Source: Eledone cirrhosa
Taxonomy: Eukaryota
Assembly: GCA_964016885.1 (NCBI GenBank)
Contig: OZ024761.1
Location: 62,001 to 126,000 of the forward strand
Length of the DNA: 64,000 bases
Direction of reading: 5' to 3'
Shown: positions 42,866-59,108 of the stretch, piece by piece
Layout of the letters: every line of letters starts with the position of its first letter
How positions within the stretch are numbered: position 1 is the stretch's first letter
Notes under the pieces: model-generated
The model's input: only the letters and a program-made list of their open reading frames with translations
Databases searched by the model: none
What the model was told of the DNA's origin: nothing
Position numbers and translations under genes: made by a program

Positions 42866-43060
42866 TAGGAAAAAGTATGACCCCGACGGCAGAGTTCAAG
42901 CCGTTTCGACGGGTTTTCTGGAGTCCAGAAATAGCCATCGAAACGGCTTGAGCTCTGCCGTCGGGGTCATACTTTTTCCTATTTCTCACTCTACTACTCT
43001 AAGTATTGAGTACTCTGGTGCGTTATGGTCCATCTGGTTCCTTACCACAATTCCTTTGTT
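42866..43060 (+). mobile_element. Family B fold-back element (divergent copy)
   Basis: ~115-bp terminal palindrome plus an ~80-bp tail, flanked by (TA)n. Confidence 0.85.
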
Positions 43061-43074
43061 ATATATATATATAT

Positions 43075-43925
43075 ATTGTTATACTTGGGGAGGGTCATAT
43101 TTGTGTAATATTGCCAGAATTAATAACAGAACACACTCACTGTTTGGTTGGTTTTCGCTTCTGTGTCTTTTATATCGGTTAATTTAATTTATTCGGTCCT
43201 CAGTGTTACCATTGACTGACCAACGGTAAAAAATACAGATATAATATAGACACAAAGACATATATATAGTCTAACAAAGCTCTTTCGTTGCACCGCTACA
43301 ACATCGTCAGTGGTGCTATTATGTTTCCTCCTGTTGTATTGTATGCCTACGCCATCTTTATTTAGTCTGTTTATTTATTTATTTATTTTTTTGTCTTCTC
43401 TGCGCATGCGTTTGCGTGTGTGTATAGTGTTTGATGTGTGTTCGTGTTTGGGTGACTGTGTATTGGTTATTGTATTCTATCTAAGTTTACTAGTGTGTGT
43501 TTATATGTGTTTGTTGTTATTGTGCTTGTGTATTTATTTATTTATTTATTTATTTATACTTCTCTTAGGTCAGTATTGTCTGTTTGGGTGTTGTTGTTAT
43601 TCCATTCATTTTTTCTGTTTAGCCTTGGCCTTCTAAGTTCTATTTCGCTGGCCTCTCTGATTTGCCTATCTGCTGGGTCATTTCTATGTTTAGATATTAT
43701 TCTAATTTCTATGTTGTCTATGTTACCGTCGTGTTGTTGTCTGGCATGTTCGTATAGTACTGAATAAATAAATAAACAGACTAAATAAAGATGGCGTAGG
43801 CATACAATACAACAGGAGGGAACATAATAGCACCACTGACGGTGTTGCAGATGTGCAACGAAAGAACTTTGTAAGACTATATATATGTGTTTGTGTCTAT
43901 ATATCTGTATTTTTGACCATTGGTC
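43075..43925 (-). mobile_element. Penelope-like element family F: endonuclease C-terminus, 3' pseudo-LTR with HHR (43274-43313) and an inverted pseudo-LTR at the 5' truncation (43765-43925)
   Basis: Typical 5'-truncated PLE architecture; homolog at 19080-19635. Confidence 0.85.
43554..43760 (-). pseudogene. PLE GIY-YIG endonuclease C-terminal half
   Basis: VLYEHARQQHDGNIDNIEIRIISKHRNDPADRQIREASEIELRRPRLNRKNEW..* carries the H...H / R..REA..I....P.LN signature. No start codon, so it is absent from the ORF track. Confidence 0.8.
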
Positions 43926-44136
43926 ACATTAACTGTGACCGACTGTCTTTCTACAGATATAATTAATGTCCAGCGTCCTTTGCAGCTATGGAGATTTGAC
44001 AGTTTTATTACCCTAACTGAAGCTGATAGCAGTCACCGTATTTCTGACTACTGGATCTTCATATGAGGGAATAAACTCTGTGAGTGAACATTGCTAATTT
44101 TCTCCCTCATATCAATAATTTGAAGACAATTCATTT

Positions 44137-44210
44137 TCACCTGATGAGATCAGTGATAATTGATCATGGCTTTACGATCGATCTATCTCTAATTGAAATA
44201 TGTGTCGTGA
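44137..44210 (+). ncRNA. Type-I hammerhead ribozyme with a long stem II
   Basis: TCAC-CTGATGA-GATCAGTGATAATTGATC..GATCGATCTATCTCTAATT-GAAA-TATGTG-TC^GTGA. Confidence 0.8.
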
Positions 44211-44431
44211 TTAAAATGATTGGAATTTTACCTTGCCTTCAGATTTTCATTTTGATACTTATACTCCGTTTTACATCATCTAGCTGTTCCCTTGAATGGA
44301 ATTGGAGATATACAAAAGCGTGGAGAACTTAATATTGCTAACATAAATTTATTGGACCGTTTTACACAACCAATAATACACCTTACTATATATATATATA
44401 TATATATATATATATATATATATATATATAT

Positions 44432-44745
44432 AAGAAAAAGAGATGAAATCGAAAATGCAACTGGAGTCTTATTTTTAAAAAAATATATATATTTATTTGG
44501 TTCCTTTACCGGTTTCGCAGTTCTTCTGCTTTTCAAAAGGTGAGTTACCACAGACCCTCCATCTCAACTCACCTTTTGAAAAGCAGAAGAACTGCGAAAC
44601 CGGTAAAGGAACCAAATAAATATATATATTAAAAAAAATAAGACTCCAGTTGCATTTTCGATTTCATCTCTTTAGCTTTATACTTTCACTCGTGTAGGAC
44701 ACCTCGGTTATTTTTCATTTTGTAAAAAAAACCTCACTTTCTAAT
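44432..44745 (+). mobile_element. Fold-back pseudo-LTR element (arms of ~110 bp, ~19-nt spacer) in (TA)n
   Basis: 44436-44546 is the reverse complement of 44566-44673. A truncated copy lies at 54086-54172. Confidence 0.8.
44572..44609 (+). ncRNA. Variant hammerhead with a U3-A8 core (mirror copy at 44503-44540 on the - strand)
   Basis: CCTT-TTGAAAA-GCAG-AAGAA-CTGC-GAAA-CCGG-TA^AAGG. Confidence 0.7.
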
Positions 44746-55190: not shown

Positions 55191-55350
55191 CATAGTACAC
55201 ACACACACATATATATATGGCTATATATATATACATATGTACACATATATATATATATATACATATATATGACTATATATATATACATGTATATATATAT
55301 ATGACTATATATATACATGTATATATATATGACTATATATATATATATAT

Positions 55351-55542
55351 AACGAAGGAAATGTGGTAAGGAACCAGGTGGACCATGACGCACCAAAGTA
55401 CTCAATACTTAGGGTAGTAGAGTGGGTAATAGGAACAAGTAAGACCCCGACGGCTGAGCTCAAGCCGTTTCGTCGGCTAATTCTGTACTGAATTAGCCGT
55501 CGAAACGGCTTGAGCTCAGCCGTCGGGTCTTACTTGTTCCTA
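55351..55542 (-). mobile_element. Family B fold-back element
   Basis: Same unit, flanked by (TA)n. Confidence 0.9.
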
Positions 55543-56382
55543 TATATATATATATATATATATATATATATTATTCCTGGTTGAATCGGATGTAACCACA
55601 GTAAGTAAGGTACTCAATACATAGCAGAGTATAACAGTTTTAATATAGAAGGTATTCTACAGAACTAGAACCTGTTCATTCGTGAGAAATGATCAGGAAT
55701 CTCTTTCTCTCTTTCTCTGTCTCTCTCCTTCTCTCTCCTTCTCTCTCTCTATCTCTCTCTCTATATATATATGACTTTAACAGGACTAGAAACTGATTAC
55801 AACATACGAATGAAACAGTTCTAGTCTTGTAGAATTCATTTCTATATATGTAATATATACTCTACCATTCTCCTGCATAGCTTTTTTAACTGTGGTTTCC
55901 CTTCCTCAACATTACTCGGGAATATATATATGTGTGTGTATATATATATATATATATATATACATAATGTGTGTGTGTGTGAACGCGTTTGTATGAGTGT
56001 CAGTGTGTGTGTGAAGAATGAAAACAAAATGCCAAGATTGGTACTTAATCAGTTCATTGTTTTACGATCGTTTCGTTAAGTTGATTGTTCATCATCATCG
56101 TATATATATATATATGATTCATGGTAATACTGAGGTTTTCCAATATAGACCCTACCATATATACATATTGTATATTTATATATATACAGTGGTATCTACC
56201 AGTATATATATATATTTATATATACAACCCAATATAATTATTCCATTTAGCTCTGTACTATACATAGACCACTGTTGTTCCTCTTTATCTTTTATACGGA
56301 AATACTTAACACACACACACACACACACACATATATATATATATATATATATATACACTGGTATCTACCTATATATATATAT

Positions 56383-56539
56383 AACGAAGGAAATGTGGTA
56401 AGGAACCAGGTGGACCATAACGCACCAAAGTACTCAATACTTAGGGTAGTAGAGTCGGTAATAGGAACCAGTAAGACCCCGACGGCTGATTCTGTACGAA
56501 ACGGCTTGAGCTCAGCCGTCGGGGTCTTACTTGTTCCTA
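56383..56539 (-). mobile_element. Family B fold-back element with an internal deletion
   Basis: Same ends; the centre of the palindrome is partly deleted. Confidence 0.85.
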
Positions 56540-58357
56540 TATATATATATATATATATATATAGGGGTTTTAGAATCTGTTTATGGGAAGGTCCATGCCA
56601 TTGAGGTGGGGAATAACACCCTACACCTGAACGTAACCCCCACACATCAATATGTATGTATGTATGTATGTCTGTATGTGTTTGTGTGTGTGTGTGTGTG
56701 TGTCTGAATATATGTATGTATATATATATATATATATATATATATATATATATATATATATATATATATATATATATATGTCTGTGTGTGCGTCTGAATG
56801 CGTTTGTATATGTGTGTATATATGTATGTATATATATATGTGTGTGTATCTGAATGTGTTTGTATGTATACATGTGTTTCTGTCTGTATGTATGTATGTA
56901 TATGTGTGTGTATCTGAATGTGTTTGTATATGTGTGTATATATATATATATATATGTGTGTATATTTGTGTGTGTCTAAATGTGTTTGTATATGTGTGTA
57001 TATATATATATATATATATATATATATATATATATATATATATATATATATGTGTATATTTGTTTGTGTCTAAATGTGTTTGTATATTGTGTATATATAT
57101 ATATATGTGTGTGTGTGTGTGTGTGTGTGTGTGTGTCTGAATGTGTTTGTATGTATGTGTCTTTGTTTGTATGTATGTGGGTGTGTATGAACGTGTGTGT
57201 GTATGTATGTGTATGTATACGCGTGTGTGTATGCATCAAGGTAAAAGTGCACTTGGTTTTATCTGTGAATGAGTGTGTGTGTGTGTGTGTGTGTGTGTGT
57301 GTGTGTGTGTTTTCACTGGCTCCGGATGTATGGCGACGGCCATGCTGGAACATTATATTTGAAATGTGAATGAATGATACGTAGGTAGGATACATATATA
57401 TGTGTGAGTGTGTGAATATATATATATATATATATATATATATATATATACATATTTGCATATATATATACATATATATATGTATATATATATACACATA
57501 CACATGTGTATATATACACATACATATATGTATATATATATATATATACATATACATATATGTATATATGTAAATATATAATCATATAAATCATATATTC
57601 ATATATAGGTATTTATGTGTATATATATGTATATATATATATACGTGTAGATATATATATATATATACACATGTATATATATATACATATATATATATAT
57701 ATATATATATATATTATACATGTATATATACATGTACGTATATAGGTATATATATACATGTATATATGCATGTCTATATACATGTACATATATATACATG
57801 TATAAATATATATACATATATCCATACACAAACGCACGCACACACACATATATATATATATATATATATATATATATATACAATATATATATAAATATAT
57901 ATATATATAAATATATATATATACATGTGTTTGTACATACGCATATATATATATATATATATATATATATATATATATATACACACACACGTATATATAC
58001 ATATACCTTATTTATATACATATAATTGTTTCTACTTTTGGCACAAGGCCAGCAATTACCCAGTACATTACATGAGAGCTTTATGTACACGGGTATACAC
58101 ACACGCACGTGTGTATGTCTATATATATTCATATATATAAATATATATATATATATATGTATATGTATATATATATATATGTATATATATATATATATAT
58201 ATATATATATATATATATATATATATATATATATATATATATATATATATATATACATATATATATATATATATCGTTCTTGCTTTCCTCTTTATAAGTA
58301 CACCTTATCCACCAACTACACAGCCCCTGTTTATATATATATATATATATATATATA

Positions 58358-58555
58358 TAGGAACCAGCAAGACCCCGACGGCTGAGCTCAAGCCGTTTCG
58401 ACGGCTAATTCTGGACGGTCCAGAATTAGCCGTCGAAACGGCTTGAGCTCAGCCGTCGGGGTCTTGCTGGTTCCTATTACCCACTCTACTACCCTAAGTA
58501 ATGAGTATTTTGGTGCGTTATGGTCCACCTGGTTCCTTACCACATTTCCTTCGTT
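58358..58555 (+). mobile_element. Family B fold-back element (partial copy also at 58931-58985)
   Basis: TAGGAACCAGCAAGACCCCGACGGCTGAGCTCAAGCCGTTTCGACGGCTAATTCTGGAC-G-GTCCAGAATTAGCCGTCGAAACGGCTTGAGCTCAGCCGTCGGGGTCTTGCTGGTTCCTA plus tail. Confidence 0.9.
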
Positions 58556-59108
58556 ATATATATATATATATATAGTATATATATATATATATATATAACG
58601 ACACACACACACACACATATATATATATATATATACTGAAACCGGTAATAGACAAATTATTAAATATATAATTAGATAAATAAATGCCATTGTTAATTAA
58701 TAAATAAATCAACTAATACCTCAACACTTCACACAAAGTAAAACATTTCGTGTTAATCATTTTCTAACCCAGAAAAAAAGAGAGAGTAAAATAGAAAGGG
58801 AAACAAATATATTTTTCTTCCTAATAATCGTCTTTTTCTCCCTGTTTTCATATATATATATATACATATATATATATATATACATATATATATATATATA
58901 TATACATATATATATATATACATATATATATAGGAACCAGTAAGACCCCGACAGCTGAGCTCAAGCCGTTTCGACGGCTAATTCATATATTACATATATA
59001 TATATATATATATATATATATATACATATATATATATATATACATATATATATATATATATATATATATATATATATATATATATATATATATATATATA
59101 TATATATA

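Follow-up and report, generated by a model that had tools for sequence, protein, structure and literature searches.

Short one-tailed palindromes of Eledone cirrhosa as probable end products of a Hydra-clade Penelope-like element

Penelope-like elements (PLEs) of the Hydra clade have a single ORF in which a reverse transcriptase (RT) is joined to a C-terminal GIY-YIG endonuclease, insert in (TA)n, carry a hammerhead near the 3' end, and form insertions with an inverted 5'-truncated copy and a one-sided tail (Craig et al., 2021, PMC8557442). The clade hallmarks are RWK, the change of DKG to DKT, a CxCX5C linker, and CxxC and CxH flanking conserved E and N residues, and the mechanism behind the inverted, one-tailed insertions was named as the next task. 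For PAc, a Poseidon element of Anolis carolinensis, extension of both strands in vitro begins at two internal start sites, which delimit the tail, and the post-priming steps were left unvalidated (Frangieh et al., 2024, PMC11167929). Penelopes of Adineta vaga form head-to-head pLTR palindromes, for which self-priming on an antisense template was proposed and a sense template left open (Arkhipova et al., 2013, PMC3846280). In L1 twin priming the second target strand primes RT and the inverted cDNAs are end-joined by microhomology (PMC11702581), and animal non-LTR retrozymes are small, non-coding, hammerhead-related derivatives of PLEs (bioRxiv 10.64898/2026.07.22.740005).

The window (the whole 64-kb stretch of DNA that was analysed) contains short palindromic insertions, termed family B, which we call stubs. 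Signed numbers in the following list are PLE positions relative to +1, and T1 and T2 mark the outer ends of the two arms.

42866..43061, + strand: stub copy 1, an antisense T1 arm, a G before +1 at the junction and a sense T2 arm that bears the tail; of the older TCTGCC/AAATAG subfamily
48432..48627, - strand: stub copy 2, tail at the left side
55350..55542, - strand: stub copy 3, tail at the left side; GTAC/TCAGT subfamily
56382..56539, - strand: stub copy 4, centre shortened and one diagnostic base differing between arms
58358..58556, + strand: stub copy 5, the reference copy
58358..58416, - strand: short arm of stub copy 5, PLE +2 to T1 (+59/+61), a putative cDNA with T1 priming
58417..58417, no strand: one-base junction insert of stub copy 5 at the PLE +1 position, the predicted capped RNA start in hammerhead loop II
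58427..58462, + strand: 3' half of the hammerhead-like motif of stub copy 5, from the parent's type-I motif, with the stem II 3' strand (+11..+18), GAAA (+19..+22), stem III, GUC (+39..+41) and the stem I 3' strand
58475..58477, + strand: T1 of stub copy 5, the TAT (+59..+61) at which the short arm ends on its outer side; a microhomology with (TA)n
58478..58557, + strand: 80-nt tail of stub copy 5 (+62..+141), ending at T2, TAT at +139..+141
58931..58984, - strand: partial copy, a single antisense T1 (short) arm that stops at +7 and is followed by AT-rich DNA

The five full copies and one partial copy of the original prediction, all in (TA)n and with common outer boundaries, were re-found in the window, and re-examination confirms the arms of about 58 bp, the tail of 80 nt and the 3' half of the hammerhead. 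The fold-back had also been centred on the stem II loop, which proved mistaken: what looks like a stem at the centre is a mirror image and not hammerhead stem II, which in the parent pairs with another upstream strand, and the stub centre falls within the large loop II. Identification of the stubs' common loop with the loop of the parental stem II was abandoned, since that stem has this other partner. The hammerhead 5' half, with its core at -43, is absent from the stub. An Rfam scan of the window gave no hammerhead among the 150 of 426 matches listed, which were microsatellite-driven; a repeat search of the window was dominated by (TA)n, in which target site duplications are not readable.

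Genome-wide there are at least about 10,000 stub palindromes and 62,608 arms. The 119-nt hairpin folds with z = -23.6, and the junction pattern has 19,975 matches against 0 with the reversed control, so that chance does not explain the stubs; in one subfamily 22 of 37 copies match the majority sequence exactly over 127 nt. In other samples, raw Illumina reads have the same outer ends and strand-switch joints at +1, and contigs of a second organism label have the same T1/T2 ends. In RAD-seq runs read ends pile up at +8, on an AATT site; this is probably the restriction cut of the library, and the pile and the 5' depth step were therefore left unused.

The stub represents the end of a tandem Hydra-clade PLE that is intact, and not the new non-autonomous fold-back class first proposed. 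A PLE-linked parent with an ORF had been anticipated and was found, although its core is UUGAGAA rather than the expected CUGANGA. Parent units are 3.1-3.5 kb long (Hydra-clade units are generally under 3 kb; PMC8557442), lie in tandem and have intact ORFs, and 3,422 arms extend upstream of the stub into the type-I hammerhead fold. The protein of 719 aa, counted from the first ATG, is encoded by a single ORF and combines RT (YRDD at 348) with a C-terminal GIY-YIG endonuclease (VIY...YIG at 591-606); it carries RWR at 37, DKT at 117, CNCPDRSIC at 572, CNLC at 670 and CKH at 698, so that apart from RWR in place of RWK it agrees with the clade motifs (RW[KR], DKT, CxCX5C, CxxC and CxH). Its placement is by these diagnostic motifs and by-eye likeness to the published Hydra alignment; they replaced a first reading as Neptune, and by eye, without alignment, it belongs to another family than Hydra-1_Obim (PMC8557442). 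A Pfam scan of the protein returned no family, and there are 2,054 homologues, the best 120 of 2,054 at 38-54% identity. Insertion in (TA)n is as expected of a Hydra-clade PLE, and the layout is that of EN+ PLE complex insertions, with an inverted 5'-truncated copy beside a 5' end, a tail at one end and partial tandems.

For the parent motif the fold of lowest energy is the type-I three-way form, but with z = -0.49. In most cases the parental core reads UUGAGAA; this U3-A8 variant has been reported among PLE hammerheads (PMC4209133), and C3-A8, G3-A8 and U3-G8 forms are also present. With a U3-A8 core, the motif is missed by a search for CUGANGA. That search gave 32 matches, and the 30 that were read held no parental ribozyme and in no case a restored core; they had arisen by accident at junctions or were chimeras that involve other families. 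A type II reading was dropped, there being no core downstream in the sequence. This non-canonical core and a stable stem III distinguish the parent from the Hydra clade as described (PMC8557442). Retrozymes are non-coding monomers in tandem, and every monomer has a full type-I hammerhead (bioRxiv 10.64898/2026.07.22.740005); the stubs are single, are missing the core together with the 5' strand of both stem I and stem II, and map straight onto an autonomous element.

The inner ends of the arms pile up at an initiator-like TTAGT/TCAGT: among 100 unbiased arms, 74 stop between -4 and +16, 18 pass -40 and 8 lie in between. Of 86 long arms, 83 retain the pentamer (75 TTAGT and 8 TCAGT; 3 other), while the bases 5-30 nt upstream vary. 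An extra, untemplated G often stands at this end. Next to +1 in junction inserts G is found 20 times and A 3 times (P = 6e-7), and genome-wide the base before +1 is G in 6,390 cases, A in 1,068 and C or T in 25,361, the last matching the parent and hence unscorable as untemplated. Parental upstream sequence is present in 0 of 30 G cases, the G is assignable to the partner arm in about 10 of the 30, and some copies have it on both arms. No DPE was seen by eye at +28 to +32. The start site and Inr of Penelope lie in the pLTR (PMC2377424; PMC8557442), and in L1 insertions an extra G marks the cap (PMC11702581). From this DNA signature we infer that +1 is a capped RNA polymerase II start, and the common centre with its extra G points to one RNA as the likely template of both halves, copied up to that predicted start. 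The 8 arms ending between -5 and -40 require further start sites or ordinary truncation.

Each stub joins two inverted arms with outer ends at +61 (T1) and +141 (T2, with the tail). Among 152 short pairs, pooled from pattern searches and in part selected on junction shape, 146 are T1+T2, 6 are T1+T1 and 0 are T2+T2 (P = 3e-36 against free choice); T1+T2 is also seen by eye in 10 of 11 long head-to-head insertions. Both ends share TAT, which bears out the predicted joining to the target through TA microhomology. In the 145 parsed junctions (one of the 146 single-tail pairs, with overlapping anchors, was left out) the short arm reaches further in 48, the long arm in 66, and 31 are ties; in 5 of 71 unbiased paired arms the tail arm ends within the tail, and there the short arm has sequence that the tail arm lacks. 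With respect to the tail, two different junctions are each found both ways round, 16:13 in both cases, in at least 4 subfamilies; junctions are thus formed anew at each insertion. In 3 of 30 loci a B arm stands head to head with another hammerhead family, and in 6 of 10 mapped loci the template jumps from +1..+4 to +203..+959, which shows that the template continues into the ORF: cDNAs reach +1 and then resume further downstream.

The arms are more alike within copies (1.6 mismatches) than between them (3.7), as had been predicted, and are concordant in 117 of 121 pairs against 24.9 in shuffles. Their variants do co-vary, but are subfamily markers common to long source elements rather than copy-specific, and the arms match by source subfamily: each of the five major arm haplotypes has its counterpart among the long arms, private variants are mirrored in only 2 of 34 entries (one site) and non-diagnostic variant sites in 15 of 208. 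The minor haplotypes ACTTA (7 arms) and TCTTT (6 arms) have no long counterpart among the 86 long arms. The idea that the arms are re-synthesized at each insertion holds in so far as both are new and come from one source; the short arm is not copied from the long one. Given the 4 discordant pairs among the 121, two of them discordant at two diagnostic sites, and the three cross-family chimeras, two RNAs are sometimes used, and two RNAs of one active locus would look identical to one RNA.

We consider that family B is probably the shortest insertion product of the intact Hydra-clade PLE, made of inverted end copies in (TA)n that were likely twin-primed and run off at the predicted capped +1. 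The same origin and twin priming could be combined with a different +1, an RT stall or RNA-processing site, with the G coming from terminal transferase bias or repair. The case for a capped start is drawn from DNA, +1 lies within a predicted hairpin inside loop II, some Gs are attributable to the partner arm and 8 of the 100 arms end 5-40 nt further upstream, all of which would suit this alternative; we nevertheless regard it as unlikely, since +1 lies mid-way in the 3' strand of the hairpin and not at its base, 3,422 arms cross it cleanly, G exceeds A 6:1 despite A/T-rich junction inserts, and the pentamer is kept amid variable upstream sequence. Very unlikely, and largely refuted already, is the mechanism first put forward, in which a T2-primed cDNA snaps back at the centre and copies itself, the new strand being cut or joined at T1. 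Self-priming has been proposed for PLE head-to-head palindromes (PMC3846280), the arms are concordant, and patches of about 10-12 nt from short snap-back synthesis are present at some junctions (one such junction recurs in 84 copies), but from either arm and only as such patches. Snap-back cannot make the short arm, because both junction orientations exist and some tail arms are shorter than their partners; T1 arms with sequence, and sometimes an extra G, absent from a truncated T2 arm, G on both arms and cross-family chimeras also stand against it, and post-insertion deletions would be needed for every asymmetric case.

Family B might instead be an independent non-autonomous family, in which transcribed stubs yield more stubs in trans or as DNA, in the manner of MITEs or of Helentron-associated or SINE-like elements. 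The very high copy number, the recurrence of identical junctions on different chromosomes, the retention of +1, T1 and T2 in stubs and the two minor haplotypes without a sampled long counterpart speak for this; even so, we hold it to be extremely improbable. The recurrent junctions occur in both orientations and several subfamilies and are therefore not inherited, the five major haplotypes track autonomous subfamilies, the jumps land in ORF-side sequence absent from a stub transcript, and both ends are PLE positions, with no Helentron or DDE ends. Long palindromes are prone to deletion and fold-back chimeras arise in sequencing, a general background on which the palindromes could have arisen as artefacts of assembly or library preparation, or be what was left when longer inverted insertions collapsed by cruciform deletion. 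This has next to no probability and is already contradicted by the T1/T2 ends and +1 strand-switch joints in reads of other samples and contigs of the second label; moreover, deletion predicts neither a stop at +1 nor an added G.

In the preferred reading, twin priming on the PLE RNA, transcription would start at TTAGT/TCAGT inside hammerhead loop II and give an RNA 5' end with only the 3' half of the ribozyme. A dimer of the PLE protein would nick both (TA)n strands and, using the TAT of T1 and of T2, prime on the 5' pLTR copy. PLE RTs are not known to have RNase H, and a single RNA could then be copied twice. RT would add C opposite the cap and then As, and the cDNA 3' ends would be joined through 1-4 nt of microhomology, A/T tracts or short snap-back patches; priming on the 3' pLTR copy would yield long inverted insertions instead. 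'Double strong-stop' is our name for this likely course, in which both cDNAs run off the RNA 5' end and are end-joined, and the stubs are likely dead ends. A bolder and tentative extension is that PLEs copy themselves in an LTR-like manner, by strong-stop and jump. The dimer would prime both target strands on a single capped RNA, at its 5' pLTR copy, and each cDNA would then have to jump from the cap to the opposite end of the RNA. If the hammerhead cleaved that 3' end after +41, the priming sites there would be lost and 41 nt of terminal redundancy would remain. Jumps that succeed would give pLTRs and tandems, a double failure the family-B stub, and a misdirected jump the observed duplications from +1 to +200..+960.

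The stub architecture itself is already published, and PAc resembles the model in having both strands nicked and extended, an AT-rich target, uncleaved RNA as template and a predicted dimer (PMC11167929). PAc belongs to a different clade from the parent and starts without target homology, whereas here TAT is common to both sites and the target; head-to-head joining, 5'-end run-off and an extra G are not treated in its main text. L1 likewise has an extra G at full-length 5' ends, but its second priming uses variable internal sites without sequence duplication (PMC11702581), while here both priming sites are fixed, the same 59 nt are in both cDNAs, and there is no poly(A) and no readable target site duplication. 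The tail of 80 nt compares with 30-40 nt published, and most insertions here are stubs stopping at one point with an extra G, which the sections of PMC8557442 cited here do not describe. Unlike the explanation for Adineta vaga, our sequences favour a sense, presumably capped template primed twice. A search of the openly accessible literature found no strong-stop, twin-priming or cap model for PLEs beyond the papers cited.

Family B bears on the origin of inverted, one-tailed PLE insertions and supplies tens of thousands of young natural products together with an intact source element. The products predict exact coordinates, an RNA start at +1 and priming sites at +61 and +141, which makes the model directly testable. 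If the strong-stop and jump reading is true, PLE hammerheads would gain a function, and pLTRs, tails and head-to-head inversions would be outcomes of one mechanism.

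Family B, a lopsided hairpin unit of about 200 nt with two inverted arms and an 80-nt tail, is a real genomic feature. The five full copies and single partial copy described in the original prediction were found again in the window, all within (TA)n and with identical outer ends, and the 119-nt palindrome has a folding z of -23.6. Its junction pattern gave 19,975 matches on both strands of the 3.0-Gb genome and 0 for the control, which puts the palindromes of the subfamilies that fit the pattern at roughly 10,000; a 19-mer from the arm matched 62,608 times. Raw Illumina reads from two other samples contain loose TA ends at each of the outer boundaries as well as strand-switch joints in the centre, and both outer ends recur in contigs under a second organism label.

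A parental copy with CUGANGA upstream of the arm had been anticipated; that search gave 32 matches, no parental ribozyme was present among the 30 inspected, and the core of the parent reads UUGAGAA. Both arms extend further at some stub junctions, and a search built on this extension recovered 3,422 arms that continue upstream and complete a predicted type-I hammerhead fold (stem I, UUGAGAA core, stem II and its large loop, GAAA, stem III and GUC), for which the modelled stability is no greater than that of shuffled sequences (z = -0.49). Replacement of C3-G8 by U3-A8 is a reported variant among hammerheads of Penelope-like elements (PLEs; PMC4209133); in other parent subfamilies the 3-8 pairs are mismatched.

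Features of the family B parent (+1 is the A at the stub centre)
-43: hammerhead-like core
+19: GAAA
+39 to +41: GUC
+59 to +61: T1, outer end of the short arm, reads TAT
+139 to +141: T2, outer end of the long (tail) arm, reads TAT
+232: ATG

The predicted linkage to a PLE ORF was borne out, since the long arms sit in units of 3.1-3.5 kb that are arranged in tandem and contain an intact ORF. The protein, 719 aa counted from the first ATG, contains RWR, DKT, YRDD, CxCX5C, GIY-YIG, CxxC and CxH motifs, and thus carries the RWK/DKT/CxCX5C/CxxC/CxH-type set that section 11 of PMC8557442 gives as diagnostic for the Hydra clade. A Pfam scan of the protein returned no match; it has 2,054 homologues, and among the best 120 of these DK[TS] is present in 118, RW[KR] in 114 and CxCX5C in 111. 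We are almost certain that family B consists of Hydra-type PLE stubs. Its architecture is already known, being the inverted 5'-truncated copy with a tail on one end that is described for PLEs in PMC8557442 and PMC3846280, and it is not the new non-autonomous fold-back retroelement class that had been suggested.

The pairing of arms is strict. Among 152 short head-to-head pairs, from loci pooled from several pattern searches, 146 are T1+T2, 6 are T1+T1 and none is T2+T2 (P = 3e-36 versus free choice), and the rule also holds, as judged by eye, in 10 of 11 long inverted insertions; the TAT of both T1 and T2 constitutes microhomology with the (TA)n target. An unbiased set, the first 100 exact arms along one contig, comprised 71 short arms with a nearby inverted partner, 18 long arms and 11 others. 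The two arms of one copy differ by 1.6 bases and arms of different copies by 3.7; of the 121 copies in which each arm has a common haplotype, 117 are concordant and 4 discordant, compared with 24.9 concordant in shuffles (2,000 shuffles, maximum 43). The reported copy-by-copy co-variation therefore stands, but the variants common to both arms mark subfamilies and are linked to variants of the tail, and private ones are hardly ever mirrored in the other arm (2/34 entries, at one site; 15/208 non-diagnostic sites). Long elements carry all five major arm haplotypes; among 86 long arms neither of two minor ones was found. Stubs are thus made separately by each source subfamily.

The original prediction attributed the concordance to one cDNA that snaps back at the ribozyme hairpin, the short arm being copied from the long arm, in which case the turn should always derive from the long arm. 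Short snap-back patches do occur, solely as junction filler and from either arm, but two junctions, the most frequent one with 1,050 matches and a complex one with 84, were each seen in both orientations, 16 versus 13 with one tail-less (n = 30 for each, several subfamilies). Of 145 pairs, moreover, the short arm reaches further toward the centre in 48 and the long arm in 66, and 31 are ties. The tail arm ends within the tail, with the short arm present, in 5 of the 71 unbiased paired arms, and in 3 of 30 loci chosen by the CUGANGA pattern a B arm is joined head to head to a different hammerhead family. It follows that two separate cDNAs become joined and that the short arm is no copy of the long one. 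Partners from at least four other hammerhead families are fused to B arms at individual genomic loci (L035, L042, L047, L036, L049, L051 and L053), in several cases at or close to the partner's ribozyme core.

The inner stops of the 100 unbiased arms lie between -4 and +16 in 74 cases, past -40 in 18 and in between in 8. In 83 of the 86 distinct long arms the +1 region reads TTAGT or TCAGT, which resembles the insect initiator consensus. In Penelope, the pLTR contains the start site and a TATA-less internal promoter (PMC2377424; PMC8557442, section 10). Where arms end at +1 beside inserted bases, the adjoining base is G in 20 and A in 3 (P = 6e-7), T and C being unscorable as inserts since both match the parent; genome-wide, +1 is preceded by G in 6,390, A in 1,068 and C or T in 25,361 cases. 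Parental upstream sequence was absent from all 30 G cases inspected, about 10 of which have a G attributable to the partner arm, and several copies carry the extra G on both arms; in L1 insertions, such a G marks the cap (PMC11702581). Among 10 mapped loci with an arm entering the ORF, 6 show a cDNA that reaches +1 to +4 and resumes at +203 to +959, as expected if reverse transcriptase (RT) meets the end of an RNA extending into the ORF and then jumps.

At loci L193, L196, L232 (= L315) and L339, A/T homopolymers of ~12-25 nt immediately precede +1, which would fit the addition of a poly(A) run to the cDNA end by RT. A 20-kb tandem PLE insertion (L153:3170-6741; G000:C1, near 91.49 Mb) has ~65 near-identical tandem repeats of a 55-nt ORF piece (unit 1755-1812) at its inner junction, possibly through RT slippage or repeated template jumping.

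Other elements lie in the window. At 50400-50560, a hammerhead 3' part of another family (short stem II hairpin, GAAA, minimal stem III) is followed by a copy of the family B tail at 84% identity, which suggests, from sequence, a tail common to different families; a small hairpin in the family B tail at 58497-58512 resembles, by eye, sequence near the Hydra-1_Amil 3' end in the supplement of PMC8557442. A remnant ORF of a different Hydra-type PLE (25103-25910, minus strand) shares 51-59% protein identity with the parent of family B. Other families contribute six candidate type-I hammerheads with CUGAUGA (1082, 11790, 19793 and 42247, minus strand; 2198 and 44141, plus strand), and here 980-1145 and 2135-2299 make up an inverted pair at 98.8%. 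Also present are a unit of 62-68 nt repeated ~37 times in tandem, with (TA)n in between (12429-15132), and fold-back elements at 8123-8444 (322-bp palindrome) and 6989-7522 (167-bp inverted pair, 96%).

We propose, from the DNA, that a capped sense RNA would start at +1, within hammerhead loop II, which would explain why only the 3' half of the ribozyme is present in stubs. The PLE protein would nick both (TA)n strands, and the same RNA would be primed by one strand at T1 and by the other at T2, which would account for the T1+T2 rule and for arm concordance. With the 5' pLTR copy as template, the two cDNAs would reach the cap after 59 and 139 nt, run off it and be end-joined; the 3' pLTR copy would give long inverted insertions. 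We regard this mechanism as a whole as probable, two RNAs from one locus being expected to look identical to one, and a sense template is favoured over the antisense self-priming proposed for PLEs in the Discussion of PMC3846280. We found no account, in the literature searchable here, of the fixed run-off point with its cap-like G, the strict T1+T2 pairing or the jumps from +1. With PAc in vitro both strands are extended, two internal start sites bound the tail, the template is uncleaved RNA and a dimer is predicted (PMC11167929); on each of these points the mechanism proposed for family B would agree.
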